57,783 nt of DNA from a virus. The notes beneath the pieces were generated by a model. The model ran no database searches. It saw nothing but the letters and a program-made list of their open reading frames with translations, and had not been told where the DNA came from. Position numbers and translations under genes: made by a program. Of the stretch, positions 1-57,783 are shown one piece after another; position 1 is the first letter of the stretch; every line of letters begins with the position of its first letter. The stretch covers positions 1 to 57,783 of the IMG/VR virus record IMGVR_UViG_3300045988_161144. One strand, 5' to 3'.

Positions 1-79
1 GCAACCTCTGCATCATTCAATAATACAGTTAAAGCAGTATTCTTAAGATTAGATGATAAGGTGATTGGTAAATCATCAC
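1..79. repeat. Terminal direct repeat, identical to 57705..57783 (79/79 nt); likely circular-contig overlap or terminal redundancy
   Basis: Direct comparison of the first and last 79 nt of the window; the minus-strand reading frame is continuous across the junction. Confidence 0.9.
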
Positions 80-1478
80 CAACCCCCCCAATCAAAGTAG
101 ATGCACTAATACTGATTTGTGGTGATTCAGCTGGAACAACTGTCCATTTTGCAGTAACACTCGCACCATTATACAAATTATCCCCATCAAACTTAAACAC
201 TCTTGTAGCAACCCCACTTGTTGGATTAGCATAATTAAATGTTACTCTACCTTCATCATTAGTAGTTTTACTCCAATCCCCGCAATAAACTGTTTTATTT
301 GCTAATGGGTTGTTTTGATTGTCTTTCAAATATAATATGCATAATACATTCTCACCAACAGTAACACTATTTTTATCAACAGTACAAGTTAATACAGAGG
401 TTTTTTTAGTCCACTCCACCACAACACTATCATGTGCTGGTAAATAATTAGAATCCCCATCGAAATCATAAGTCAATTCCACCTTTTGAGGGACTGCTGG
501 AGTATAAGTATATGTGACTTTCCCATCATTATTTGTAGACTTAATATTATTATACCTGTCCCTAATTGCTTTATTAGGAACTGGTTTATTATTCTTATCT
601 AACAATGTAACTGTCATGATCAACATTTTCCCAGCTTCCAACACTGTCTGACTTGCTGAAACAATAAAAGATACTGGTATCTTAGACACTTGTACAGACA
701 CAGATTGACTACATTCATTATATGCTGGTGAACCACCATATATAAAATCAAGAGTTAAATTTAATGATGCTTTGACAGTATCTGAAAATTCGCCTTTATC
801 ATTTGTAATGTATTGTTTTTCATTAAACAATATTTCAGCCCCTTTAACTAATTCTCCATCACTACTTTTTAAAACACCATTGAAGGAAATAATATCATCA
901 ATATAATATGAGTCCTTGTCCAGAGTAATGGTTAAATTTGTGTCTAATTTAGTGATGTCTGGAAGTTTTGGTTTATCAACCATTACAGGATTATTAATTT
1001 CTAACAAATATCCATCATATAAAAAACTAATAAAATTATAAACCTTAAATGATTCTGGTAAGATACAAAAAGCCAATACAATATTAGTAACCTTATTGAC
1101 AATAAAAACCCCAGCCATATCCTGTGCCACATTACCGATTTCAACAATTGGGGTGGCAGATGATACTTGGACAGTTAATCCACCATTATCATAACTTTGC
1201 ATATATAATTCAATTGGTGGATAATTAACACTTTCACGAACCTCTAACCCATCATCATCAGTATAGACCTTCTTTAAAGGAGTGACTTCATTATAATTCA
1301 AGGTGTAATCATTATTGATGTTCTTTTTCCAATCACCACTACATCGACTTACGGGGATAAAACACCATTTATTAAAATTATTTCCTTTAACCATTTGTTC
1401 AAAACTAAAACACCCTCTTTTATTAATTATCTTCCAAAGATTTCCAATAAGTTTAAATTCTAAATAATCATCAATCAT
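1..1478 (-). CDS. Tail fibre / adhesin-like protein, N-terminal 492 aa (Dit-like N-domain plus repeated Ig-like beta-sandwich modules); continues across the window junction into 57704..57035
   Basis: ATG at 1478 immediately downstream of the stop of ORF 1493..4558; open frame to position 1 in the same phase as ORF 57035..57783; N-terminal 170 aa paralogous to ORF 13139..13663; repeated TNDxG..VTF motifs. Confidence 0.6.
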   Translation of the reverse strand, partial: MIDDYLEFKLIGNLWKIINKRGCFSFEQMVKGNNFNKWCFIPVSRCSGDWKKNINNDYTLNYNEVTPLKKVYTDDDGLEVRESVNYPPIELYMQSYDNGGLTVQVSSATPIVEIGNVAQDMAGVFIVNKVTNIVLAFCILPESFKVYNFISFLYDGYLLEINNPVMVDKPKLPDITKLDTNLTITLDKDSYYIDDIISFNGVLKSSDGELVKGAEILFNEKQYITNDKGEFSDTVKASLNLTLDFIYGGSPAYNECSQSVSVQVSKIPVSFIVSASQTVLEAGKMLIMTVTLLDKNNKPVPNKAIRDRYNNIKSTNNDGKVTYTYTPAVPQKVELTYDFDGDSNYLPAHDSVVVEWTKKTSVLTCTVDKNSVTVGENVLCILYLKDNQNNPLANKTVYCGDWSKTTNDEGRVTFNYANPTSGVATRVFKFDGDNLYNGASVTAKWTVVPAESPQISISASTLIGGVGDDLPITLSSNLKNTALTVLLNDAEV

Positions 1479-32116: not shown

Positions 32117-32896
32117 TTATTTATAATTATTTATAATCTCTTGTAATTCTTCTATATTCTTAGCATATGATATACAATCAGGGCAATTATAACACAAATA
32201 ATTATTACAGACATTATAAATAAAGTCTTCTACCTCGTTTAATAATGTCTTGTCTTTATATATTTGTTTCCTTAATTTCTTATTTGTTATTATTTCCTTT
32301 AATGAATATTCATATTCGTAATAATTTTTTGGATCTGCTTTTATAGAATAATAATAATTTATATATTTATGATTCAGATTTGAATAATATAAACCGTCTT
32401 CCTCTATAAAGTCATCTGAGACAAATATTCCTCTTGGTGTTGCTACTGCCCATCTGCAATTTGTAGCTTGAGATAATATATCTATTCCTTGTTGGTTTGC
32501 TTTTATACCATTCCTATATTTTCTTATATATGTGGCGGTGTCGTTTAAACCTTTTTCAAGTGTTAAATTGCTTATGGTTCCATTCATAAAATATACTGGT
32601 TTTCTGCCTGTGTATTCTGTAATATTTGGGTTATTCTTCTTAAATGGGTGTGTCTGTCTTTTATTCGTGCTTCCTTTGCTGGTTATTCTAAAATGTACTA
32701 TTTTTTCATAATTCTTATTATTGTATTTCTTAAATTCTCTTAAAAATTCGTTAAATTTCATGAATCCTTTTTTATAATAAACTTTGCCATTTTCTATTAT
32801 GGCATATCCTCCTCCGTCTGGGTTTGTTTCCCATGCTTCTTTAAGTTCGTTTTCTTCTATTTCTGTTCCTATTTTTGAATAAATAATTATACACAT
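32117..32896 (-). CDS. Class-II (Ntn) glutamine amidotransferase-like protein (259 aa), N-terminal Met-Cys nucleophile
   Basis: Begins MCIIIY.. (Cys2 as in GAT-II enzymes); adjacent to amidoligase-like gene with only 2 nt between them. Confidence 0.4.
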   Translation of the reverse strand: MCIIIYSKIGTEIEENELKEAWETNPDGGGYAIIENGKVYYKKGFMKFNEFLREFKKYNNKNYEKIVHFRITSKGSTNKRQTHPFKKNNPNITEYTGRKPVYFMNGTISNLTLEKGLNDTATYIRKYRNGIKANQQGIDILSQATNCRWAVATPRGIFVSDDFIEEDGLYYSNLNHKYINYYYSIKADPKNYYEYEYSLKEIITNKKLRKQIYKDKTLLNEVEDFIYNVCNNYLCYNCPDCISYAKNIEELQEIINNYK

Positions 32897-34048: not shown

Positions 34049-34156
34049 CTTTTAATTTTTTTAAGTAATACTGTTGTACTACTCGTTACTCTATCTTATG
34101 TTCTATCTACTATTTATACTTTTTGGTTTTAGTGTGTGTTATGTTCTATATTATTG

Positions 34157-34221
34157 TTATTTTTCAGACGTTACTGTTAATGATCAACTTATTTATTTTT
34201 CAGACGTTACTGTTAATGATC
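34157..34221. repeat. Two tandem copies of 29-bp TTATTTTTCAGACGTTACTGTTAATGATC (period 36)
   Basis: Exact duplicate read directly. Confidence 0.85.
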
Positions 34222-34551
34222 CTATTTTTATATTATGATTTTTTTTATTTTCTGTCCTTGTTTTATATCTTATTTTAACACTTTATTTTAATTATTTTAC
34301 TACTTTTTACTTTAACTATTAATTTAATTGTGTGGTTCTTTAATTATTTTTATGGTGTTGGTGTTTTATTAGTTTATAGTATTGTCTTATCTATATTTAT
34401 TTGTTGATTTATTACAATTTCTTTAATTTTAATTTTATTTCATGATTTGTTTTTTATTGTGTCTGTTGCTGTTTGTGTTCGTGTTTTCTGTTGTTGCTTC
34501 AGCTTCAGCAATTGAATATATTATTATAGTTATTATATTCTTTATTGTGTT

Positions 34552-34580
34552 TATGCCTATTATGCCTATTATGCCTATTA
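34552..34580. repeat. Tandem 9-mer TATGCCTAT x3
   Basis: Read directly. Confidence 0.8.
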
Positions 34581-34677
34581 TTCATATTTTACATATTATC
34601 CACATTATATTATTTTAATATATTTTACTCATGATACAGATTATCCTGCGTCACTTACATTATATGGGTTTAGGTCT

Positions 34678-34872
34678 TTAATTCGTAGATGGTTCGGGGA
34701 TTTTTTTTAATTCGTAGATAAAATGGGTTTAATTCGTAGATAGATTTTAATTCGTAGATCATGTCCTTAATTCGTAGATAATTTATAAGTTTAATTCGTA
34801 GATGGTAAGAGTAATTTTAATTCGTAGATGGTAGATGGTTTTAGTTTACAAATAATAGTTTAATTCGTAGAT
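34678..34872. repeat. Array of eight direct 13-bp iteron-like repeats TTAATTCGTAGAT with irregular spacing (starts 34678, 34707, 34729, 34747, 34767, 34791, 34817, 34860); several extend to TTAATTCGTAGATGGTAGATGG
   Basis: Exact copies read directly in non-coding region; variable spacers 5-30 bp. Confidence 0.85.
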
Positions 34873-35485
34873 GGTAGATGGTTTAATAAAAAGATGGCTC
34901 TCCTTTAAATACTTCATTAATCAAAATTAATTATTAGAGGTTTATTAAAATTAATGTTTGAGGATTAAAATAACACGAACATAATATGTGATGGTTTTTT
35001 ATGAATTATCCAGTTTTCCCCAGCATATATTATGTTATCCAATATATTCTTCTAATTAATTTTAAACATATATTATAAATCATAAGGATTTAATGATTTA
35101 GCTCAACTCTATTATATTAAAACACTTGTTCATATTATATTAGACCTTTCTGTACATTGTTAAAAACGGGTATGACTTATAGGATAATCCAACATAATAT
35201 TAATAGATTAATTAAACCTCTAAAACAAATATTAGATAGTATAGGATTATCTAATGTGTCTTGTGTATTCAAACATTACATGAACTATTATCCTATTATA
35301 GAATGTGTGAATATTTAATTCTTGAATAAGATTATGTGATGGTATAGGTTTATTGTCTAAAGATATTCTTCATAATAATAATTTAACGGTCCCAAATTCC
35401 CATATACTGCGTATATGGGAGTTATTGTTATTATTATTGGCTTATTTTTTAATTCTGACATTTGTTCTTTTTAGATAATTAATCT

Positions 35486-35525
35486 ATATTGTCATATGAT
35501 CGCCTCCTATTGAATATGACAATAT
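35486..35525. terminator. Perfect 12-bp inverted repeat ATATTGTCATAT / ATATGACAATAT with 16-nt spacer, followed by T-rich tract; hairpin or operator
   Basis: Read directly. Confidence 0.5.
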
Positions 35526-35699
35526 TCTTTCTATTTTACTGTTTTTGTAAGTAGATTTGGATATGTTTTATTTTATATCGGATTTTTTATAGGTGTGTGT
35601 TGAATACTTATTTTTGTGGTTGATTAGGTTAGTTATTGTTGTATGTAATCATGTTTTAGTTTAGTTTTTAGATGATTATTTTTGTGTGTTTTATGTTTT

Positions 35700-35880
35700 T
35701 GTTTGTGTTATTTTTTCCATTTCCAAATCCATTTTCATTTTCATTTCCATTTCCATTTCTAAACTTGTTTTCATTTCCATTTCCTTTTTCAATCCCATTC
35801 TTATTTCATTTTTCATTTCTAATCTCATTTCCAAATCCATTTTCATTTTCATTTCCATTTCTAATTTTGTTTTTTTTGAA
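35700..35880. repeat. Block of degenerate TTCCATTT / CATTTTCATTTCC repeats including a roughly 38-bp unit present twice
   Basis: Read directly; ORFs over it translate to FPFPF / EMEMK low-complexity peptides. Confidence 0.7.
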
Positions 35881-36283
35881 TAGTTGGTGGGTGGAAAATA
35901 CCTTCCACCAATCTTCGCTTTGCACTTCAAATTCACTTCAATATTCGTGACAAAAAGGATTCTCTATCCTTCTTTTTTAAATTAGAGTATTATTTATATA
36001 TATTTATTGTTGAGAAGAAGGACTCTGGGGGGTATAAGAAGACTTTTGTTTTTATGTTTGTATAGTATAAAACAATACTATAATGAAAGTAAAATATACA
36101 CTCTCCTTTAAATACACCTATAATACAAATAAAGATATGAGATTAGAGAGAAAAAAAGAAAGTAATATGTGAGGCATATTTTTATAAATATGTTTCACAA
36201 AATTTTCCTAACAAAAAATATCTCATCTAATGATTAACAAACATAAAAAAGTAATAATAACTATACCTTGGAGGTGACAAACC

Positions 36284-36484
36284 ATGACTACTACATTACC
36301 TTTAGCACCAATCCGTAGAATAATGACTGAAGCAGGGTGTAAAAGAGTATCTGAAGATGCAGTAGCATTAATGGCTAAATATGCTGAATCAGCAATCTAC
36401 GAAGTTAGTGCAGAAGCAAAACATGCAACTGAACATGCTGGTAGAAATACTGTTCGTGTAGAAGATATTGAATTTGTAATTTAA
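36284..36484 (+). CDS. Archaeal histone (HMf/HMfB family, 66 aa)
   Basis: LPLAPIRRIM.EAG..RVSEDA ... HAGRNTVRVEDIEFV closely parallels HMfB [22 protein letters not shown] ... HAGRKTIKAEDIELA; RBS GGAGGTGA 6 nt upstream. Confidence 0.9.
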   Translation: MTTTLPLAPIRRIMTEAGCKRVSEDAVALMAKYAESAIYEVSAEAKHATEHAGRNTVRVEDIEFVI

Positions 36485-37143: not shown

Positions 37144-37974
37144 ATGAAAAACAAAAACATAAAAACAAAAATAAAAGAATTAGAAAACAATGAAATATAC
37201 ATTGACAAATTCAATAAAGGATTAGTCATCTACAACAACAAACAAGAATATGTCATACCAGATTTGATGAGGAAAGTCACAATAAAACATGGAATAGAAA
37301 AAACCACCTTCAATCAGGAAGAACTAACACAATTATTCCTAAAACATAAAGTTTATGAAAAAATAACATCAGCAGATTACAATAGAGTATTAACTGAATA
37401 TGAATTCATAAAACAAAACATTCCAGACACATATGCATCAAAACATAAAACACCTTTCAAAGAAGCAAAAGAATATGCATTAAACTATTATATTAACAAC
37501 GAATATGTTCCAGGAGTATTGGAAAACACATTAAATATATTAGAATATTATCCGAGCATATATAATTTGCCATTGAAAGGATTCCATTACAAATACAATT
37601 ATGTCGCACAAATACTTGAAGACTACAATGTAAATCGTTTTGGGAACATCACAAAACCATTATACAATAAAACCTTCGCAGTATTAGAACATAATACAGA
37701 TACATTAATATTAAATAAATCTGGAAACAAAATAATAAATGGTGTAATATACAAAAATTCAATCAATGCTCCAAACCTACTCATGATATTATGGGGTAGA
37801 GCATATGACAATATAATGAATGATCCCAAAGTACAATATGGGTACAAATATAATCAAGAACCAGACACATACCAAGTAGCAGATTTCACTGGTTGTTTAA
37901 ATCAAATTAATGAATTATATGGTAAAGATAAAGTTGTATGTGATTTTAGAATTAACAGAGGAGTTGGATTATGA
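37144..37974 (+). CDS. Hypothetical protein (276 aa), lysogeny-region candidate
   Basis: Six-frame ORF following histone gene, translationally coupled to next small ORF. Confidence 0.4.
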   Translation: MKNKNIKTKIKELENNEIYIDKFNKGLVIYNNKQEYVIPDLMRKVTIKHGIEKTTFNQEELTQLFLKHKVYEKITSADYNRVLTEYEFIKQNIPDTYASKHKTPFKEAKEYALNYYINNEYVPGVLENTLNILEYYPSIYNLPLKGFHYKYNYVAQILEDYNVNRFGNITKPLYNKTFAVLEHNTDTLILNKSGNKIINGVIYKNSINAPNLLMILWGRAYDNIMNDPKVQYGYKYNQEPDTYQVADFTGCLNQINELYGKDKVVCDFRINRGVGL

Positions 37975-38117
37975 GGAGAATGACTAAAAATTTAGTTGTA
38001 TATGTTGAAGATTATAATGAATTGAATAATATCAAAATCAGTTCTTCAGAAACATATGATAATGTAATTATTAGAGTATTAAATGAGGTGGAGAATCGTG
38101 GCAAAGAAAGAAACTAA
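37971..38117 (+). CDS. Small RHH-like protein (48 aa), not in ORF track
   Basis: ATG overlapping the stop of the upstream gene (ATGA); beta-strand-then-helix pattern NLVVYVEDYNELNNIK. Confidence 0.3.
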   Translation: MRRMTKNLVVYVEDYNELNNIKISSSETYDNVIIRVLNEVENRGKERN

Positions 38118-38496
38118 AACTATCAAAATATCGATTGAAGCATACACGAGATTAAAACATTGGAAGAATATTGATGAATCTAATCCTCAAGCAATGCATA
38201 GGTTGCTTGAAGAATATAAATCATATGTTCATATTGAGAGTCAGGAATATGTTGTTGATTATAAAGACACATCACTTCATTTTAAAGTTGTGGGTGATGA
38301 ATTAAAATATTATCATGTTTCCGAGGATAACTGGTGGAGTTCTATTGATGCATGGGTTGATGTAGCAAATGGTTTCCATTATGTGGAAATCATTGATTTT
38401 TTCAAGAATTTCTTGTTGAAGGAATCTGCAATGATTTTACTTAAGGACATGGGTGATGAATTAGTTTATGGAGATTATATTATCAGGAAATTATAG
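38083..38496 (+). CDS. Putative DNA-binding regulator (137 aa) with RHH-like N-terminus (KTIKISIEAYTRLKHWK)
   Basis: RBS GAGGTGG upstream; RHH-like motif. Confidence 0.4.
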   Translation: MRWRIVAKKETKTIKISIEAYTRLKHWKNIDESNPQAMHRLLEEYKSYVHIESQEYVVDYKDTSLHFKVVGDELKYYHVSEDNWWSSIDAWVDVANGFHYVEIIDFFKNFLLKESAMILLKDMGDELVYGDYIIRKL

Positions 38497-38546
38497 TAAA
38501 TATTATATATTATAGCTGATATAATAAATACTATGATTATTTTTTG

Positions 38547-38565
38547 AGTGTTTTAGTGAAACACT
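38547..38565. terminator. Hairpin AGTGTTT-TAGTG-AAACACT flanked by T/A tracts, between regulator gene and int
   Basis: Perfect 7-bp stem read directly. Confidence 0.35.
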
Positions 38566-38648: not shown

Positions 38649-39722
38649 GTGATAAATATGGTTTTCGAACAATTCGTACAAGAACGAAACTTATCAAAAG
38701 AAACAAGGCGGAGATATAAAACAATATTAAAAAAATATGCCTTGTTCAATGATATGAGTTTGGAAGAATTGTTAGATGAAGCAGACAAAGAAGAAATCAA
38801 AGGAGTAAGATGGAAAAATAGAAAACTCAAAACAAGACTAATTGAATTTAGAAAATATTTGTATAATTCATTAAGGTCATCAACTGCAAAAATGTATTTT
38901 ATAAGTGTAGTATCATTTTACAGGCATTTTGAGATAGAAATCCATAAATTACCTTCAACAAGTAATGTGAATGTTCATTCACCTGAACCAGTAGAGTTTT
39001 CAGATATTCCCACAAAAGAATTACTTCAAAAAGTGATAAACGAATCAAAAAACAATACATTCAGAACAGTAATATATTTCATGTCAAGTACAGGATTAGC
39101 AATGATTGATACATTAAATTTAACTGTTAAAGATTTCCTTACTGCATGCAATGTTGAGAGTATTGATGAATTAGATAACTTATCAGAATATGTTTCCACA
39201 TTCAAATTAAAACGGAGGAAAACTGGAAAATATTTCTATACATTTGCAACACCTGAAACAACAAAACAAATAATAAATTATATCCATTCAAAACCAAATG
39301 TGAACGTGGGTGATAAATTATTTGATATAAGTGCAGATTACTTATACCAACTGTTTCGAAAAACAAATGATAGATTAGGTAAAGGTAGAAAAAATAATCA
39401 GAGTTTGTTCAGAAGCCATATGTTAAGGAAGTATCATGCAACAACATTACTCAATTCTGGTTTGACTCTTGAACAAATAGATGCTTTACAAGGTAGGAGT
39501 AAGGAAATTACTCACCAATCATATTTTCTTGATGATCCCAAAGTTTTGAAAGAAATTTATATGGAGCATATGGATAAATTAACCATATTTGGAGATAGTG
39601 AAGAAATACAGGAATTAAAGGAGAAAAATCGAGAATACGAGGAGAAATTTGTGGAACAAGAAGAATTAATTAAGGAAATTGTTGAAGCACAGGAAAAATT
39701 AGAGAAACTATTGGAACTCTGA
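38649..39722 (+). CDS. int: Tyrosine integrase / site-specific recombinase (357 aa)
   Basis: N-terminal core-binding-like region; catalytic motifs R (RTVIYFMSSTGLA), H-x-x-R (FRSHMLRKYHATT), and C-terminal GRSKEITHQSY with Tyr. Confidence 0.85.
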   Translation: MINMVFEQFVQERNLSKETRRRYKTILKKYALFNDMSLEELLDEADKEEIKGVRWKNRKLKTRLIEFRKYLYNSLRSSTAKMYFISVVSFYRHFEIEIHKLPSTSNVNVHSPEPVEFSDIPTKELLQKVINESKNNTFRTVIYFMSSTGLAMIDTLNLTVKDFLTACNVESIDELDNLSEYVSTFKLKRRKTGKYFYTFATPETTKQIINYIHSKPNVNVGDKLFDISADYLYQLFRKTNDRLGKGRKNNQSLFRSHMLRKYHATTLLNSGLTLEQIDALQGRSKEITHQSYFLDDPKVLKEIYMEHMDKLTIFGDSEEIQELKEKNREYEEKFVEQEELIKEIVEAQEKLEKLLEL

Positions 39723-41994: not shown

Positions 41995-42300
41995 ATGACA
42001 AAATATGTTGGAACAGCATTCAGTATGCAAATGATTCAGGGTGGAGTAGGTTTGCTTGAATATTGCCAAATATCTGAAGAAACATTCAGAAAACTCGTTC
42101 AAGGAGCAGTATCCTTTGTAGGACACAAGGACATGGCAGAACACCTTGGAGTACCAGTGAATCGTGGAAACCTTATACTTGAAGATGGAGATGTACTATA
42201 TCTTGCCCAGAAATGTAATGGGAGAAATGGTTCAAATGCTCCACCTGAAGATGTGGAAATCAAATATTATCAAATATTTAATGTAGGTGATAAATTATGA
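41995..42300 (+). CDS. Hypothetical protein (101 aa)
   Basis: ORF in operon. Confidence 0.4.
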   Translation: MTKYVGTAFSMQMIQGGVGLLEYCQISEETFRKLVQGAVSFVGHKDMAEHLGVPVNRGNLILEDGDVLYLAQKCNGRNGSNAPPEDVEIKYYQIFNVGDKL

Positions 42301-42953
42301 GTAGGAAACAAAAAGTAACTGAACCTATGATAATACAAAATGAACATGGTAATGTTTTAGCAGAGTATTCTCCAGAATTATTATCCACAATAAAGAATAC
42401 TGTGGCTAAAGGAGCAACTAATGAAGAATTATATATGTTTCTTCAAATAGCATCAATGTATGACCTCAATCCTTTCTTGAAAGAGATATGGTTTACAAAA
42501 ATGAAAGATGAGGTTGCAATCATGACCAGTCGTGATGGTTATGCTAAAATTGCTAAAAGAGATCCCGAATTCAAGAAATGCCAATCCATGGCTGTGTTTG
42601 AAAATGATGTTTTCAAAACCAAACTTGAAATGGGTGAAGTGGTTGGTATAACTCATGAATTTGGTCAGAATGACCGAGGCAAACTTGTAGGTGCATATGC
42701 AATATTAATAACCTACAGTGGTGGAAAATTATATTCCTATGTTGATTATAGAGAATATGATAAGAGAAATTACATCTGGAAGAACTATCCTACGGCAATG
42801 TTGAGGAAAGTAGCTGAAAATGATGTATATAAAAGATTTGCAAATATCAATGGTATCTCAACCATAGAAGATATGCCTTCTGGATACGCTGATTATGCAA
42901 TTGAAAATGAAATTATTGAGACAAACAAAATAAATGGAGATGGATTAGAATGA
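42297..42953 (+). CDS. Putative RecT/Redbeta-like single-strand annealing protein (218 aa)
   Basis: Central ELYMFLQIASMYDLNPFLKEIWF resembles RecT-family core (....GLdP......y.i); C-terminal TAMLRKVAENDVYKRF resembles RecT tail; unverified. Confidence 0.4.
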   Translation: MSRKQKVTEPMIIQNEHGNVLAEYSPELLSTIKNTVAKGATNEELYMFLQIASMYDLNPFLKEIWFTKMKDEVAIMTSRDGYAKIAKRDPEFKKCQSMAVFENDVFKTKLEMGEVVGITHEFGQNDRGKLVGAYAILITYSGGKLYSYVDYREYDKRNYIWKNYPTAMLRKVAENDVYKRFANINGISTIEDMPSGYADYAIENEIIETNKINGDGLE

Positions 42954-43507: not shown

Positions 43508-45222
43508 TGAATTTGAAAGAGGGTGTACCTCTTGATAATGGAACATATGTTAAGGTGAGTCCTGAAGGCTCACAATTTCATTATGTTTTCTTTGAAGGGG
43601 GTAAGATGATTTATGAAACAAGGAATCCTGCTCCTTTAAGATTATCTCCACAGTCCTTAACTGGTAGGAAGATAAGATCATGTTTTCCAGAAAATATACA
43701 AAAAAATACAGATAAATCTTATCAGCGATTTGATGAGGTTAAACAAGTTCTGCATGAATACATTAAACTTCTTGAATTAGAGGAGCATAAACAATCAGTT
43801 CAACAGAAACTGGAGGAAGAAGCAAAAGAGAAATTAGAATGGGAAGATGCATTAAAGAAATATGAAAGTATTGATGACCCATTAATTTGGCTTAGGAGTA
43901 TGATTGATTGGGTGAGTGCAGGTGAATCAAATAATATTATGATTGCATTTCTTACATATTGTAGTCAGATTATACTTGAACACCCAATATCTCTAATTAT
44001 GTTAGGGGAAGGTAGTTCAGGTAAAAACCATATTATTGAAATTGCTAAAATGTTATGTCCAGAGGAATATTTTATCAACATGAACCACCCTACACTTGCT
44101 TCCATATTCCGTAAGGCTGATGAAGACCCATATTATTTCCACCGTAAAATTGTAAGCATGGGTGATTTGGGTGGTGATAATGATCATGAAGAGGTTGCTG
44201 ATGCAAAAAATATTTTCAAAGAACTTCAAACTGAAGGAGAATTGAGTCGTCCTGTTTCAAGAAAAGTTGATGGTGATTGGGTTGTTGTAGACTTGTATTT
44301 GAAAGGTAAACCATGCCTTAACTATTCAACAGTACCTAATCATAACTTTGATAGTCAAGAGAAGAGTCGTGCAATGTTATTGACTCCACGAACAGATAAT
44401 CAGAAATCTTTCTTTAAAATGATGACTATGATTGAATTTAAGGGAGGATATAATTATAATATGTATCATGAAATCTTCAATTATTTATCCGAATTTATGC
44501 CTTTGGTTGTCAGGGGTTTAGTGGATAAATTTAAGAATACTAATGTCATTAATCCCTATGTCACTTGTATTCAGGATTTTGTTAAAGGTTCAGATTATTT
44601 TAAAAGAGATTTTCCAAAATACAATGCGATAATGCAAGTCATTGCTATATTAAATTATTCTAATAAAAAAATACACACTATTGATGGGAAACAATCAATA
44701 TTTGTGAATATGGGGGATTTATTAATTTTCCTTGAATTGTTTAATTTGTATAATGATGCTATGCAGTCTAATTTGTCTTTGAGAGCCACCCAAATATATC
44801 AGGATTTACTGGATAATTTTGATGTGTATGCACTAAATAGTCCCGATAAGGATAATTATAATGAATTTGGTATTACTATTAATGATTATATGCTTCAATC
44901 TGAACAGAATCTTTCTAAAAGGAGTCTCCAAACATACTTTAAAGAATTACGAGATAAGAATATTATTAGAGTTGTTGGGGCTTTTTGGAAATCACCAATC
45001 TACCAATTGAATAAAAATCATAAAAAGAAAGTTTATGATTTGATGGACTGTCTTGATGATCATATGCAGAACATACTTGCTGATGTATATGGTTATGGTG
45101 TATTAGATGATATTTTAATTGAAAGTAATGTTGAGGATATTGATATATTTTCACAACACTCCCTAATTAATCCACCACCATGGCAGGATAATAAATGTGT
45201 CGGTGATGTTAATAGTAAATGA
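43507..45222 (+). CDS. P-loop ATPase (571 aa), putative replication initiator / SF3-like helicase
   Basis: Walker A LIMLGEGSSGKNHI, Walker B-like KIVSMGDLG, possible motif C STVPN. Confidence 0.4.
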   Translation: MNLKEGVPLDNGTYVKVSPEGSQFHYVFFEGGKMIYETRNPAPLRLSPQSLTGRKIRSCFPENIQKNTDKSYQRFDEVKQVLHEYIKLLELEEHKQSVQQKLEEEAKEKLEWEDALKKYESIDDPLIWLRSMIDWVSAGESNNIMIAFLTYCSQIILEHPISLIMLGEGSSGKNHIIEIAKMLCPEEYFINMNHPTLASIFRKADEDPYYFHRKIVSMGDLGGDNDHEEVADAKNIFKELQTEGELSRPVSRKVDGDWVVVDLYLKGKPCLNYSTVPNHNFDSQEKSRAMLLTPRTDNQKSFFKMMTMIEFKGGYNYNMYHEIFNYLSEFMPLVVRGLVDKFKNTNVINPYVTCIQDFVKGSDYFKRDFPKYNAIMQVIAILNYSNKKIHTIDGKQSIFVNMGDLLIFLELFNLYNDAMQSNLSLRATQIYQDLLDNFDVYALNSPDKDNYNEFGITINDYMLQSEQNLSKRSLQTYFKELRDKNIIRVVGAFWKSPIYQLNKNHKKKVYDLMDCLDDHMQNILADVYGYGVLDDILIESNVEDIDIFSQHSLINPPPWQDNKCVGDVNSK

Positions 45223-53431: not shown

Positions 53432-53507
53432 TTACTTTAATATCCTTTTTTCTTTTTTTCTTTTACTAATCTCCTGAAAAAAATTATTTTAGGAGTTGAA
53501 TGTAAAT

Positions 53508-54173
53508 ATGTCTAAAATTAAGAATGTAGTGATTGATTATCGTGAAGGAAGTCGTGTTTCCTCTGCTAAAAGCTTTTTCGAGGATTACAATGTAATCACT
53601 ACAACTTTGCAACATGGTGATTTCTTATTTCAAAATGATACTGATAATATGAATGTATTATTTGAGTATAAGACTGGTAATGATTTTTTAACAAGTATTA
53701 ATAATAAACATATATTTAATCAGACAGTTAGAGCTTGTCAGAATTATAAATATCAGTTTATTATTGTGCAGGTTCATGACATGAAATCATTGATTGATAG
53801 ATTTTTTTATCAATCTGGTGTTGATATGAGTATAGAGCAGGTTAATGGTGCAGTTGCTTCATTAAATACTATTTCTACAGTATTATTTGCTGATACATTA
53901 TATGATTCTTTTGATTTAATGTATCGTCAAGCAACAAAGGTTTTTGAGGATAAGCCATTGACTTATAAGTTTCAGAAGAAGAGTATGAATCCAGCATTGA
54001 ATTTTTTGCATGGGATTCATGGTATTGATAAGCAGGTGGAAGTGATTGTTGATAAATTTAACTTGTATTCATTATATGATTTATTTAATTTAACAGAAAA
54101 TGACTTAAAAACAGTACCTAATATAGGTGAAGCTAAAGCAAAAAACATATATAAAGCAATACATGGAGAATAA
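53508..54173 (+). CDS. XPF/Hef-like structure-specific nuclease (ERCC4 domain + C-terminal helix-hairpin-helix), 221 aa
   Basis: VVIDYREGS...GDFLF........VLFEYKTGNDFLTSI resembles ERCC4 (GD[YF]....ERK..DL..S); C-terminal LTENDLKTVPNIGEAKAKNIYKAI is HhH. Confidence 0.45.
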   Translation: MSKIKNVVIDYREGSRVSSAKSFFEDYNVITTTLQHGDFLFQNDTDNMNVLFEYKTGNDFLTSINNKHIFNQTVRACQNYKYQFIIVQVHDMKSLIDRFFYQSGVDMSIEQVNGAVASLNTISTVLFADTLYDSFDLMYRQATKVFEDKPLTYKFQKKSMNPALNFLHGIHGIDKQVEVIVDKFNLYSLYDLFNLTENDLKTVPNIGEAKAKNIYKAIHGE

Positions 54174-55260: not shown

Positions 55261-55435
55261 AAACTATTTCTTGTGAATCAACCAAATCAAATTTGTTCCT
55301 TAAAGAGTTAATCACTAATTGCAAATCCATAACTTCTTCTATCAAACCATATTCTTCATACAATTTATTACATTCTTGTTGTAAATTATCTAATGTTTCT
55401 TTTAAACTTTCTTTTGCTTCTGTCATAATTCTCAC
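55241..55435 (-). CDS. Small coiled-coil protein (64 aa)
   Basis: ORF overlapping both neighbours. Confidence 0.35.
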   Translation of the reverse strand: MRIMTEAKESLKETLDNLQQECNKLYEEYGLIEEVMDLQLVINSLRNKFDLVDSQEIVYENFVQ

Positions 55436-56367
55436 CCTTTTGTTAAGATTGCAACACTCGGTTGGCTAATTCCTCTCATATAAGATAATTGATTTGACTT
55501 ACTACGAGTTTCTATATACCCACAATATGCAGGTTTATTACACCTGTTACCTAAACTGTTTAAAACAGTCACATTATTACCATTCACTGATTTAAGAACT
55601 TCATAATGCCCCCATTTATTATAGTATAATATGTGACAAAATACAGCCCCATTTGATGCATACTGGTTTAATTTATTCCATCTTGCTGAATCAGAACTTC
55701 CTAAATCATTGAAGTTTTTCCAAGTAATTTTAATGTTCTGTCCATATTTGCGATTAAACCAAGCTACAGCTGTATTAATACCTTGATGACCTGTACCTGA
55801 AGTTGTTGTTCCAGCTACACTTGCTATTGTAGATTCTGATATATGAATGCCAGTTAAACGATAGAATGCTTGTTGTAGACTATTACAAGCACAATAATAT
55901 GGTGTGCATTGTCCCATACCTGCACATCCTTTATTTGTTAAATAATTATGTAATTTATTATTGTTTGTAGTATTTTGTACTGATGTATTGCCAGTTAAAT
56001 ATACTATTGCGGGACTCACACCATTTTTAACTTCATATGCTGATACTCTGCGACACATATCTACATAAGTATCTTTCATATACTTCTTACCATTTTTATC
56101 AATCACATAATTTGGTAAAAAGCTTAAATCTTTGTTATCATGTATGGCACATTCTACAAATTCAGTTATAAGACTGTCAGATTGGTAATTAGTACCTCTT
56201 TCTTTAATCACTCGAATTATTGTACCGTAATCTGCACTACGGTTCATATATCCATATATATTTCTTGTATTGAATTTTTTATTATTATTAACAAGCCAGT
56301 AAGCAATTCTATTACAAATATTACTATAATTTGTATAGTTTGTAGATTCTCTATCCATTTTTATCAC
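55432..56367 (-). CDS. Putative pseudomurein endoisopeptidase-like endolysin (311 aa): N-terminal pseudomurein-binding-repeat-like region plus C-terminal Cys/His peptidase domain
   Basis: Length and architecture like PeiW/PeiP (about 305 aa); PNYV-containing repeats in N-half; C-half with conserved Cys (GQCTPYYCACNSLQQAF) and His (YYNKWGHYEVL) blocks; unverified by search. Confidence 0.5.
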   Translation of the reverse strand: MIKMDRESTNYTNYSNICNRIAYWLVNNNKKFNTRNIYGYMNRSADYGTIIRVIKERGTNYQSDSLITEFVECAIHDNKDLSFLPNYVIDKNGKKYMKDTYVDMCRRVSAYEVKNGVSPAIVYLTGNTSVQNTTNNNKLHNYLTNKGCAGMGQCTPYYCACNSLQQAFYRLTGIHISESTIASVAGTTTSGTGHQGINTAVAWFNRKYGQNIKITWKNFNDLGSSDSARWNKLNQYASNGAVFCHILYYNKWGHYEVLKSVNGNNVTVLNSLGNRCNKPAYCGYIETRSKSNQLSYMRGISQPSVAILTKG

Positions 56368-56501
56368 TTCCTTTTAATAGGCATTTGTTGTTGCGGTAGT
56401 AGCAACATTTTTCTACTTCTTCGTTTTTATCATGTTTACATTCATGGTCGCATTTTAAATTATTCATGGTTTTTTCTCTCTTTTTTTATTTTTTTTCGTA
56501 G

Positions 56502-56521
56502 GTTTATTATTCAAACATACT
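56502..56521. repeat. Inverted repeat left copy GTTTATTATTCAAACATACT (19/20 match to rc of 57582..57601); weaker similarity continues about 25 nt
   Basis: Direct comparison; both copies encode VYYSNIL in their respective strands. Confidence 0.85.
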
Positions 56522-57047
56522 GCAAGTTGAGGATTGTATTAAATATGGTTTTAAAGATTCTGATACTTGGGTTAATCCAACTGGACATTCTTCGACTAAT
56601 AATGTGGTTGATGGGGTCTTTACAAGCACCAGTAACAGTAGTAAAGGAGATAGTATACTTCAATTAGACCTTACTGGAGATTTCATAATCACATATGATG
56701 CACAATGGCAAAAATCAACAAGATGTGGAATCGGAGCAAAAGACACTACTCGTACATACCATTTCGATAGTGGAACAGACACTAACTTCAAAACTCAAAA
56801 ATACATCTACTGGGACGGCACTAAAGAAACAGAAACCCACTATTCTGAATCTACTCAAACTACTTACTGCCCATGTAAAATTATTAAAAGTGATGGACAT
56901 TTAAAAGGATATATGAATGATAAATTAGTCTGTGATTTGTCATATCCTTGGATAAGTCAGTGTACGGTTTGGAATTTCCATACAACAATTTGGAATCCAT
57001 CAACTATTAAAATCAAGAACTTGAAGATTAAACCTTATTCAGAATAA
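56502..57047 (+). CDS. Promoterless, start-less alternative tail-fibre C-terminal cassette (181 codons after an in-frame TAG; begins VYYSNILQVEDC..., ends ...KNLKIKPYSE)
   Basis: Open frame begins immediately after a stop with no ATG for 34 codons; first 12 aa and last 10 aa match the resident C-terminus of the tail fibre on the opposite strand. Confidence 0.5.
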   Translation, partial: VYYSNILQVEDCIKYGFKDSDTWVNPTGHSSTNNVVDGVFTSTSNSSKGDSILQLDLTGDFIITYDAQWQKSTRCGIGAKDTTRTYHFDSGTDTNFKTQKYIYWDGTKETETHYSESTQTTYCPCKIIKSDGHLKGYMNDKLVCDLSYPWISQCTVWNFHTTIWNPSTIKIKNLKIKPYSE

Positions 57048-57783
57048 TGTTTGATTTTAAGGTTTTTAACCTTCTGAATCCTGTTTCTGTTTGTGTAAAA
57101 ACAGAAATACTGGGTATCACAAGTTTTACCTTGATGTTTGTTTAATATTAATTCACCATTTTGGTACAATTTGACATTATTGGGTTCTACAATGAACTTC
57201 AAGTGGTCATTAGGGTTAATATCTCGTGTTATGTTTGCTTCAGTTTTACTTGAGCTTGTGCTTGAAGGATATGTACTGATTATGAATTTGTTTGTTCCAC
57301 TATCCCAATGACTCCCATACCAAAAAGTATCTCCAGAATATTTGGCATCAGGGTATAGTTCTAAACCCATTTTTTGGTTTCCTCCTCCATCTACCCAGTC
57401 AAATTCGATAGTGTATGGTGGAGTGAAGTATTTGCTTGGTAATCTATATTGTTGTTCGGAATTACTGTTTGTACTAAATTTAGTACCCTCTGAATCAATA
57501 TTTACAATAATGTCACTTGTTCTAACCCATCTGTCGGATTCACTGGTCATAGTATCATAAACTAAACAATCTTCAAGGTTTAGTATATTTGAATAATAAA
57601 CATTCGTTCCAGATAAGTATTTGACTTTCACATTTACATCACCAGCACCATTACAATTATAATTAAATACTGCATTACCAGTATTATCAGTAGTAACACT
57701 ATCCGCAACCTCTGCATCATTCAATAATACAGTTAAAGCAGTATTCTTAAGATTAGATGATAAGGTGATTGGTAAATCATCAC
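57035..57783 (-). CDS. Tail fibre / adhesin C-terminal part including receptor-binding-like domain (ends ...KNLKIKHYSE); N-terminus continues across junction to 1478
   Basis: Frame open to window end; identical 79 nt at 1..79 in same phase as ORF starting at 1478. Confidence 0.6.
   Translation of the reverse strand, partial: DDLPITLSSNLKNTALTVLLNDAEVADSVTTDNTGNAVFNYNCNGAGDVNVKVKYLSGTNVYYSNILNLEDCLVYDTMTSESDRWVRTSDIIVNIDSEGTKFSTNSNSEQQYRLPSKYFTPPYTIEFDWVDGGGNQKMGLELYPDAKYSGDTFWYGSHWDSGTNKFIISTYPSSTSSSKTEANITRDINPNDHLKFIVEPNNVKLYQNGELILNKHQGKTCDTQYFCFYTNRNRIQKVKNLKIKHYSE
57582..57601. repeat. Inverted repeat right copy AGTATATTTGAATAATAAAC within tail fibre gene
   Basis: See left copy. Confidence 0.85.
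57705..57783. repeat. Terminal direct repeat, identical to 1..79
   Basis: Direct comparison. Confidence 0.9.

Follow-up and report, generated by a model that had tools for sequence, protein, structure and literature searches.

In the G segment of Mu (S/S', U/U', Gin) and the C segment of P1 (Cin), a serine invertase joins a constant N-terminal fibre part to one of alternative C-termini, giving a mixed population with two host ranges. The R64 shufflon switches the C-terminus of the PilV adhesin with a tyrosine recombinase, Rci, through site-specific inversion at short asymmetric sites, and comprises several segments, seven sfx sites and an adjacent rci gene, while in gut bacteria gene-altering programmed inversions, or intragenic invertons, are repeat-bounded flips that recode the 3' part of specificity genes and are detectable in metagenomes. 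Here we describe a locus in a temperate tailed virus of Methanobrevibacter (smithii/intestini), contained in IMG/VR record IMGVR_UViG_3300045988_161144, positions 1–57,783 (hereafter the window, 57,783 nt in full, to which all coordinates refer). Positions 56502–57601 of the window are very probably an invertible cassette pair that swaps the glycan-binding C-terminal tip of a tail fibre/receptor-binding protein of 715 amino acids (aa). By analogy, the closest precedent appears to be the int1 system of the haloarchaeal myovirus φCh1/φH1 (Rössler 2004; Klein 2012), which we take as described in PMC6210493. According to that source, the int1 region (also cited in PMC8371274) has a gene for a XerD-type recombinase between two oppositely oriented, repeat-rich fibre genes; the silent fibre copy has no start codon, numerous short repeats occur in each fibre gene, and inversion of a segment of ~3.5 kb swaps the C-terminal part of the fibre, which is taken to alter receptor binding (PMC6210493).

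The first 79 nt of the window are identical to its last 79 nt (1–79 duplicate 57705–57783), so the contig is circular or terminally redundant, with a unit of 57,704 bp. Read across the circular join, the fibre gene occupies the minus strand from an ATG at 1478–1476 (MIDDYLEF...) through position 1 and on from 57783 to a stop at 57035–57037. An initial annotation of the locus, made from the letters alone, gave the constant part as 534 aa; this figure holds if the window is treated as a circle and the heptapeptide VYYSNIL, shared by both cassettes, is counted, with 527 aa preceding the heptapeptide. In the window, the constant part continues into cassette CA, which reads ...GTNVYYSNILNLEDCLVYD... 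on the minus strand, with the V at 57601. The second cassette, CB, lies on the opposite strand and was correctly recognised in the same annotation as a frame that has no ATG start and opens directly after an in-frame TAG (56499–56501): it begins VYYSNILQVEDCIKYGF..., reads VYYSNILQVEDC... after the TAG, and runs 181 codons to a stop at 57045–57047, with the earliest in-frame start being a GTG at 56604, 34 codons in. The domain sizes proposed there, 174 and 181 aa, are those of CB and CA past the shared heptapeptide (181 and 188 aa when counted from VYYSNIL). We likewise confirmed that the two reading frames converge with stops overlapping by 13 nt, in a near-palindrome, and that both cassettes end in KNLKIK(P/H)YSE. 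CA and CB are 28 % identical (BLASTP E = 1e-8) and hence homologous.

The heads of the two cassettes form the inverted repeat reported in the initial annotation, with 19 of 20 nt matching (positions in Table 1), and the similarity extends to 41 nt at 80 % identity. This is the sole inverted pair of 20-mers in the whole window (at most one mismatch, arms 200–3000 nt apart). Any such pair turned up in 4 of 60 first-order Markov simulations, which makes the repeat alone only modestly unlikely; its placement in frame at the head of two homologous cassettes, unlike the repeat alone, indicates a non-random arrangement. Between 54000 and 57783 there is one arm pair, and no repeat clusters were found.

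Features typical of invertible fibre switches as a class are thus found here: the repeats lie inside fibre coding sequence, there are two C-termini of which one is fused, and both orientations occur in nature (see below). As in φCh1/φH1, the bearer is a temperate tailed virus of an archaeon and the fibre C-terminus is swapped by inversion. In contrast to φCh1/φH1, the segment measures only 1.1 kb and consists of just two convergent cassettes with overlapping stops and no int1-like gene inside; each arm has one core of 14–20 nt instead of repeat clusters, no recombinase gene lies within 17 kb, the host is a gut methanogen with a pseudomurein wall, and for the tips, which have ConA-like lectin folds, no relationship in sequence to the φCh1 fibre was detected. 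With Mu G and P1 C the locus shares a constant fibre part that carries one of two C-termini and inversion between short repeats inside coding sequence, but no serine recombinase of the Resolvase family is detectable (Pfam/PHROG), and it differs from Mu G in having no second gene pair (U/U'), in its size (1.1 kb versus ~3 kb) and in belonging to an archaeal virus. The core GTTTATTATTCAAAYATACT and its arms are presumably unlike gix and hix sites, which measure 26 bp with a 2-bp central overlap and go with an enhancer bound by Fis, and Fis is, to our knowledge, absent from archaea. The initial annotation had likened the locus to Mu S/S' or the P1 C segment; the logic is indeed the same, whereas membership of that family falls away for want of a serine invertase. 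Like the R64 shufflon, the locus switches an adhesin C-terminus by inversion at short sites within coding DNA, but with two sites, one segment and no adjacent recombinase. In common with the gene-altering inversions of gut bacteria, the 3' part of a specificity gene is recoded and two orientations are seen in metagenomes. With neither a serine invertase, nor a recombinase inside or beside the segment, nor repeat clusters, the present system stands outside both the serine-invertase and the int1 families.

To follow the segment in related genomes (loci numbered L, fibre homologues P), we searched for relatives of CB and obtained eight IMG/VR loci. In six of these, the fibre has a single cassette, CB, which is fused and expressed as its C-terminus, and pei, a lysis gene resembling pseudomurein endoisopeptidases, follows. 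The arrangement of the window recurs in L003 and L007, and the opposite one, with CB fused to the constant part and CA silent, is found in L005. When the window is compared with L005, L004 and L009, the DNA breakpoints coincide exactly with the repeat arms; on the constant side, the breakpoint relative to these three and to L041 lies within the arm. A hypothetical flipped protein, built from the constant part of the window and CB, was then used as a query. It returned 719 homologues, and the 120 matches listed were split into constant part and tip. Among them, the same constant-part lineages bear either CA or CB: constant parts of ~530 aa are 100 % identical in P0103/P0007 and in P0105/P0013, and 99.6 % identical in P0104/P0016, with a CA tip in one member of each pair and a CB tip in the other.

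At the DNA level, L015 (ERZ27307667, a 155-kb contig) and L016 (ERZ918112, a 57.8-kb contig), which come from different samples, have flanks that are 99.93 % identical over 9630 nt and 99.91 % identical over 7486 nt, between which a segment of 1100 nt is 100 % identical and inverted at identical coordinates. Similarly, 1140 nt are 100 % identical and inverted between L017/L018 and L019, next to a flank of 99.97 % identity. A scan with a degenerate distal-junction pattern that matches either state yielded two further loci: L042, with the orientation of the window, and L041 (ERZ857998), in which 56502–57601 is inverted at 96.3 % identity between flanks 97.1 % and 98.2 % identical to those of the window. 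The 1.1-kb segment therefore inverts in close relatives, including a near relative of the window (L041). Seven of the 14 two-cassette loci examined were in state A (the window, L003, L007, L015, L017/L018, L042 and L043) and seven in state B (L005, L016, L019, L041, L044, L045 and L046), a sampling biased by the queries used. The initial annotation had predicted that recombination between the repeats would fuse the constant part to the alternative C-terminal domain, and had proposed looking for the same inverted repeat in other Methanobrevibacter proviruses. Such fusions exist in public data (P0103/P0007 and P0105/P0013; L015/L016; L041), and both orientations of the segment were found, in assemblies of relatives.

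Contig topology further suggests that both orientations coexist in three samples. In L017/L018 (two records 100 % identical to each other and counted as one), L044 and L045 (separate samples), a junction of constant part and cassette is accompanied by the other cassette at the contig end, joined in inverted orientation to the same constant flank, of which 16–90 nt are present there. L044 is labelled as a k = 141 contig, a k-mer size exceeding the 41-nt repeat. Since a repeat of 20–41 nt cannot create junction k-mers of k = 141, molecules of both states would have been sequenced in each sample.

We then considered whether the silent copy is a mere remnant. All 23 cassettes examined, silent or expressed, are intact (188–189 or 179–182 codons), and pairwise ratios of non-synonymous to synonymous substitution rates (dN/dS) among cassettes range from 0.09 to 0.7, including pairs in which both are silent; for silent cassettes the ratio is 0.1–0.5. 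The CB cassettes of the window and L007, for example, are both silent and differ by 79 non-synonymous and 40 synonymous changes, a ratio of 0.41. Both cassettes are under purifying selection; a remnant would decay, and the silent cassettes have not. A ...YSE ending (...KIK(P/H/Y)YSE) was present in every two-cassette locus inspected at the DNA level, while the single-cassette L004 and L009 end in KIKSQ or KIKPQ, so that the KIK(P/H/Y)YSE ending may flag genomes which bear the switch. The fibre is otherwise modular: three homologues of 795–804 aa (P0001, P0020, P0030) have an additional insertion of ~115 aa between the constant part and CB, and L014 carries a CA cassette (93 % identical) on a constant part that is only 28 % identical.

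AlphaFold models of both cassettes, based on family alignments, are beta-sandwiches. In both cassettes the modelled fold is a curved jelly roll of the ConA-like lectin/glucanase type, matching lectins, carbohydrate-binding modules, GH16 and PL7, which bears out the lectin-like or jelly-roll fold suggested earlier. As modelled, the tips would have a fold common among glycan-binding or glycan-cleaving tips. We infer, on good grounds, that the two tips recognise different cell-surface glycans, and that the switch would thereby change host or strain range as a form of bet-hedging. The indications for a difference in specificity are indirect: the lectin-like fold, the 28 % identity between the cassettes and the purifying selection on both.

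The position of the crossover was mapped on an arm alignment of ten two-cassette loci, with which four more loci agreed. On the constant side, the flank ...GGAACGAAT next to the core keeps its position in both orientations in every two-cassette locus, and the bases of the distal flank, ...TTCGTAG or ...GTGTTCGTAT, likewise stay fixed on inversion. TTCGTA(G/T) adjoining the core is kept even in divergent lineages, as seen in the arm alignments, and a spacer from a clustered regularly interspaced short palindromic repeats (CRISPR) array in L032 likewise carries GTGTTCGTATG and the core. Past the 14-nt core GTTTATTATTCAAA, the first base to vary, a T in CA but a C in CB, usually travels with the cassette. 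The CA arm of four loci has C instead, indicating that some exchanges or conversions occur a few bases further in. By these alignments, the crossover is confined to a core of 14–20 nt, GTTTATTATTCAAA(Y)ATACT, and is reciprocal and length-neutral, which is the behaviour of conservative site-specific recombination. In our view, homology of 14–20 nt is too short for efficient homologous recombination.

Taken together, these data suggest the following model. In the state represented by the window, the constant part of 527 aa is fused through VYYSNIL to CA, and CB lies tail to tail on the opposite strand without a start. The core, GTTTATTATTCAAA(Y)ATACT, heads each cassette as a single copy, the two copies being inverted relative to each other. 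It would be the place of a conservative, reciprocal exchange that flips the segment, presumably catalysed by a site-specific recombinase. After the flip CB would be fused in frame and CA silent, and the process would be reversible.

The L032 array mentioned above (Methanobrevibacter intestini WWM1085, NZ_NQLD01000016.1, L032:907-4944) consists of 61 repeats of ATTTCAATCCTATTATAGTCTTATTTCTAAC and contains many spacers against this virus group. One of them, AGTGTTCGTATGTTTATTATTCTAATATACTAACTG (L032:1867-1902), covers sequence from the distal flank through the inversion core into the opening bases of a silent CA cassette, and another lies in the CB cassette of L005. Because the first spacer crosses the inversion junction, flipping would split its protospacer, and a side possibility is that flipping also aids escape from CRISPR spacers such as those of M. 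intestini.

Several observations weigh against this model. Among the matches listed, no constant part of the window lineage (at least 97 % identical) is fused to a CB of at least 93 % identity, and in the nearest flipped relative, L041, the constant part is a mosaic when compared with that of the window. For both states occurring together in three samples the basis is contig topology, and the CA model has a predicted local distance difference test (pLDDT) score of 63.5, indicating modest confidence. A pattern search of the window found exactly two copies of the inversion core and no third. There is no dedicated invertase gene in or beside the segment, and searches with Pfam and PHROG detected neither a serine recombinase nor a Piv/IS110-type enzyme nor another tyrosine recombinase. 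The inversion arms match the core of the viral attachment (att) site, as defined from attL (L020), attR (L047) and the attP of the window, at only 10/14 and 9/14 positions, with a spacer of 7 nt versus 5 nt. Finally, in an exact 20-mer scan of species-representative genomes, the only match of the inversion core in Methanobrevibacter was the M. intestini CRISPR spacer, the other 12 matches being in unrelated taxa.

The strongest rival, which we nonetheless consider unlikely, is that inversions are rare and unprogrammed, arise through short-homology recombination or template-switching between the arms, and become visible through selection on receptor use. It accommodates the lack of an invertase gene associated with the segment, and it would explain the repeat by the shared, conserved starting peptide of the cassettes, since single-cassette relatives have the same nucleotides. 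The virus itself encodes a RecT/Bet-like single-strand annealing protein (42297–42953) and an ERCC4/Hef-XPF-like nuclease with a helix-hairpin-helix domain (53496–54173), which might assist such events and which keep the short-homology route alive as a minority rival. An archaeal integrase, that of pTN3, has been reported to drive homology-type inversions, though with segments of at least 104 bp (PMC8371274). Here, by contrast, perfect homology extends over just 14 nt (20 nt with one mismatch), and the precise exchange leaves the length unchanged. Its recurrence is seen in at least four lineage pairs, whose segments show 0 mismatches, and both states are found together in three samples. The architecture, moreover, looks selected, combining a cassette without a start, a stop in frame, stops that overlap and the conserved non-coding TTCGTA(G/T) flank, and it persists across lineages to a synonymous divergence (dS) of ~0.5–0.6.

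A very improbable alternative is that no intramolecular inversion takes place at all, and that co-infecting viruses exchange modules at the VYYSNIL junction, the silent cassette being a leftover. Fibre modules are certainly mosaic, as illustrated by CA on a 28 %-identical constant part (L014) and by the mosaic constant part of L041 relative to the window; constant-part lineages pair with several CB alleles, and single-cassette relatives are common. The pairs L015/L016 and L017/L019, however, have the whole two-cassette segment 100 % identical and reversed between 99.9 % identical flanks, and a segment that is identical but reversed is not the product of exchange with another virus; silent cassettes, in addition, show no decay. 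That the differences in orientation are assembly artefacts of the inverted repeat is a practically negligible possibility: contigs L017, L018, L044 and L045 do end at or fold back through the repeat, but at 20–41 nt it is shorter than the k-mer sizes in contig labels (k141, k127), so each junction must have real read coverage, and both orientations occur inside long contigs (45–155 kb) whose flanks are consistent and which derive from independent studies and assemblers.

If inversion of the cassette pair is accepted as the preferred reading, the identity of the recombinase has to be considered. We searched 62 open reading frames (ORFs) against Pfam, 20 non-structural ORFs against PHROGs and 4 ORFs against NCBIfam. 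The initial annotation had named a tyrosine integrase as the only recombinase, which stands, with its start corrected to 38658, since 38649 is an upstream GTG. This protein matches Pfam Phage_integrase (27.5 bits), the PHROG integrase family (E = 2e-15) and, far under the cut-off, the XerA-like family of NCBIfam (E = 1e-12). Beyond it, the searches for a second recombinase brought up only the RecT/Bet-like protein and the Hef/XPF-like nuclease mentioned above. The earlier remark that no serine invertase is visible also stood: none was found in the Pfam or PHROG matches, and the Resolvase and Recombinase families were absent from the Pfam families listed (25/34 matched, 62 ORFs) and from the PHROGs (20 ORFs). 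In the extra 4.4 kb of L005, inspected by eye only, no recombinase was seen. As for a diversity-generating retroelement, this candidate was rejected: no reverse-transcriptase family is among the Pfam matches listed, and the cassettes, at 28 % identity, are not a template/variable repeat pair.

We also dismissed the idea that the repeat contains an att-like site on which the integrase acts. Scores of at least 10/14 with a 7-nt spacer are reached by about 90 sites in the genome, which puts the resemblance of the arms to the att core at chance level, and site similarity thus lends the integrase no support. Nor does anything point positively to a host enzyme, and no chromosomal pairs of the core were found in the exact 20-mer scan of species-representative genomes (one genome per species). 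It is possible, well short of probable, that the viral Xer-like integrase acts on a second, unrelated site, and a host-encoded recombinase is an equally likely candidate for catalysing the exchange; the remaining probability falls to an unrecognised viral protein or to short-homology recombination. Our tentative suggestion is that the switch may be run by a non-adjacent, perhaps non-viral enzyme (a recombinase of Methanobrevibacter or one of an unrecognised kind) acting on the minimal core of 14–20 bp. If true, this would amount to a host-dependent switch of a receptor-binding protein in an archaeal virus of the human gut, and to an undescribed site-specific inversion activity in Methanobacteriales.

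Some Methanobrevibacter chromosomes (L048–L050) have only the last ~1 kb of the provirus at the integration locus (e.g. L049:3437-4478 versus window 37519–38562), including a gene of 137 aa (38083–38496). At the left junction of this remnant (AGTCTTTTGGAAAACAC), host flank is joined to a pseudo-att site in a viral gene of 276 aa (~37512–37530, AGTATTGGAAAACAC), and the arrangement looks like the outcome of recombination at a secondary, att-like site, with this stretch left behind.

The methanogens that dominate in the human gut are M. smithii and M. intestini. Host choice by their viruses is almost unstudied, and experiments have characterised only a single one, Methanobrevibacter smithii tailed virus 1 (MSTV1). 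A reversible swap of the fibre tip would offer a concrete mechanism by which these viruses could hedge their bets on host range and persist alongside their hosts over the long term, would take fibre phase variation among viruses of archaea outside the haloarchaeal φCh1 group, and names two candidate glycan-binding domains usable for finding receptors on the pseudomurein cell surface. The minimal 14–20-bp site without a cognate adjacent invertase raises a recombinase question whose answer could yield a genetic tool for methanogens. A minimal, 1.1-kb, tail-to-tail switch of two cassettes with a single 14–20-nt core per arm in a gut-methanogen virus is apparently unreported. Literature on Methanobrevibacter in combination with inversion, inverton, tail or recombinase amounted to a general review, the compendium of Medvedeva et al. 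2023 (vir080, vir249) being outside coverage. The text of the MSTV1 paper does not contain the words 'inversion', 'recombinase' or 'adhesin', and archaea, Methanobrevibacter included, go unmentioned in the TPMM viral-inverton paper. A long-read survey with PhaVa reported 12 putative archaeal invertons from 42 archaeal datasets, in a text without Methanobrevibacter or tail fibres (PMC10028968).

Table 1 Features of the invertible locus, its flanks and the integration module in the window.
Feature	Position	Strand	Remarks
Fibre N-terminal constant part	1..1478	-	Circular join, from translation; contains immunoglobulin-like (Big) repeats
Last 61 codons of the constant part (...NCNGAGDVNVKVKYLSGTN)	57602..57783	-	Run into the constant-side repeat arm
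Constant-side repeat arm	57566..57606		Core 57582-57601, minus strand GTTTATTATTCAAATATACT, encodes VYYSNIL
Cassette CA, C-terminal domain expressed in the window	57035..57601	-	188 aa from VYYSNIL, ending KNLKIKHYSE*
Centre of the invertible segment	57035..57047	both	13-nt near-palindrome TTATTCAGAATAA, encodes ...YSE-stop on both strands
Cassette CB, silent in the window	56502..57047	+	181 codons; no start codon; expressed C-terminus in many relatives
Distal repeat arm	56497..56537		Core 56502-56521, GTTTATTATTCAAACATACT
Distal non-coding flank	56468..56501		T-rich, ends TTCGTAG; stays put on inversion
Small cysteine-rich ORF, 38 aa	56351..56467	-	First gene downstream of the switch; overlaps the start of pei
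pei, pseudomurein endoisopeptidase-like lysis gene	55432..56358	-	vir249 and MSTV1 records so annotated under the match
attP core AGTGTTT-TAGTG-AAACACT	38544..38562		Exchange within TTTTAGTGA; unrelated to the inversion core
Xer-like tyrosine integrase	38658..39722	+	Only recognisable site-specific recombinase in the genome; candidate invertase

The genome has a G+C content of 30.7 %, and a large terminase found by Pfam search of the window marks it as that of a tailed virus. The nearest records in databases, 'Caudoviricetes sp. vir080' and 'vir249', are from the human gut and state Methanobacteriales as the host, and MSTV1 is a more distant match. The integrase was found, as the exact protein, in 62 collection blocks, where the provirus sits within archaeal chromosomal contigs next to genes for an archaeal DNA primase, methionyl-tRNA synthetase (MetRS), DUF530 and DUF1699, and one fibre homologue is annotated at NCBI as M. 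smithii. Spacers in the 61-repeat CRISPR array of M. intestini WWM1085 are directed against the window (43651–43689, with 2 mismatches, and a second match at 32820–32845) and against several relatives. Chromosomal integration and these spacers bear out the Methanobrevibacter host that had been proposed at the outset.

Upstream of the fibre gene lie four giant minus-strand ORFs (1020–2250 aa), and the one immediately upstream matches the PHROG families 'tail protein' and 'host range and adsorption protein'; BppU-like_C is recorded for an orthologue of this gene. Fibre homologues are 707–718 aa long and start at the same Met, with Pfam Big_3_5, Big_1 and CarboxypepD_reg recorded for them. Downstream, pei, which has a weak match to the Pfam PMBR repeat, is the neighbour of the switch and fixes the orientation of that flank, and the 38-aa cysteine-rich gene is also called in L016, L019 and L046. 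In the divergent two-cassette locus L005, 4.4 kb (L005:7290-11509) coding for proteins of 217, 834 and 257 aa, structural-looking by eye, lie between the silent cassette and pei, so the switch does not always adjoin the lysis gene.

Elsewhere in the window, an archaeal histone-fold protein is encoded at 36284–36484 on the plus strand (Pfam CBFD_NFYB_HMF, E = 6.6e-15), also in integrated copies, and the virus carries nucleotide-metabolism genes for a dCTP deaminase/dUTPase, a thymidylate synthase and a guanylate kinase. A large non-coding region (~34050–36280) contains eight copies of TTAATTCGTAGAT at 18–43 nt spacing (34678–34872), together with tandem repeats at ~34150–34220 and 34540–34580 and of the CATTTCC type at 35700–35870; it looks like an iteron-type replication origin or a regulatory region. 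Probably by coincidence, the distal flank of the inversion site terminates in TTCGTAG, the heptamer of the 34678–34872 repeats.

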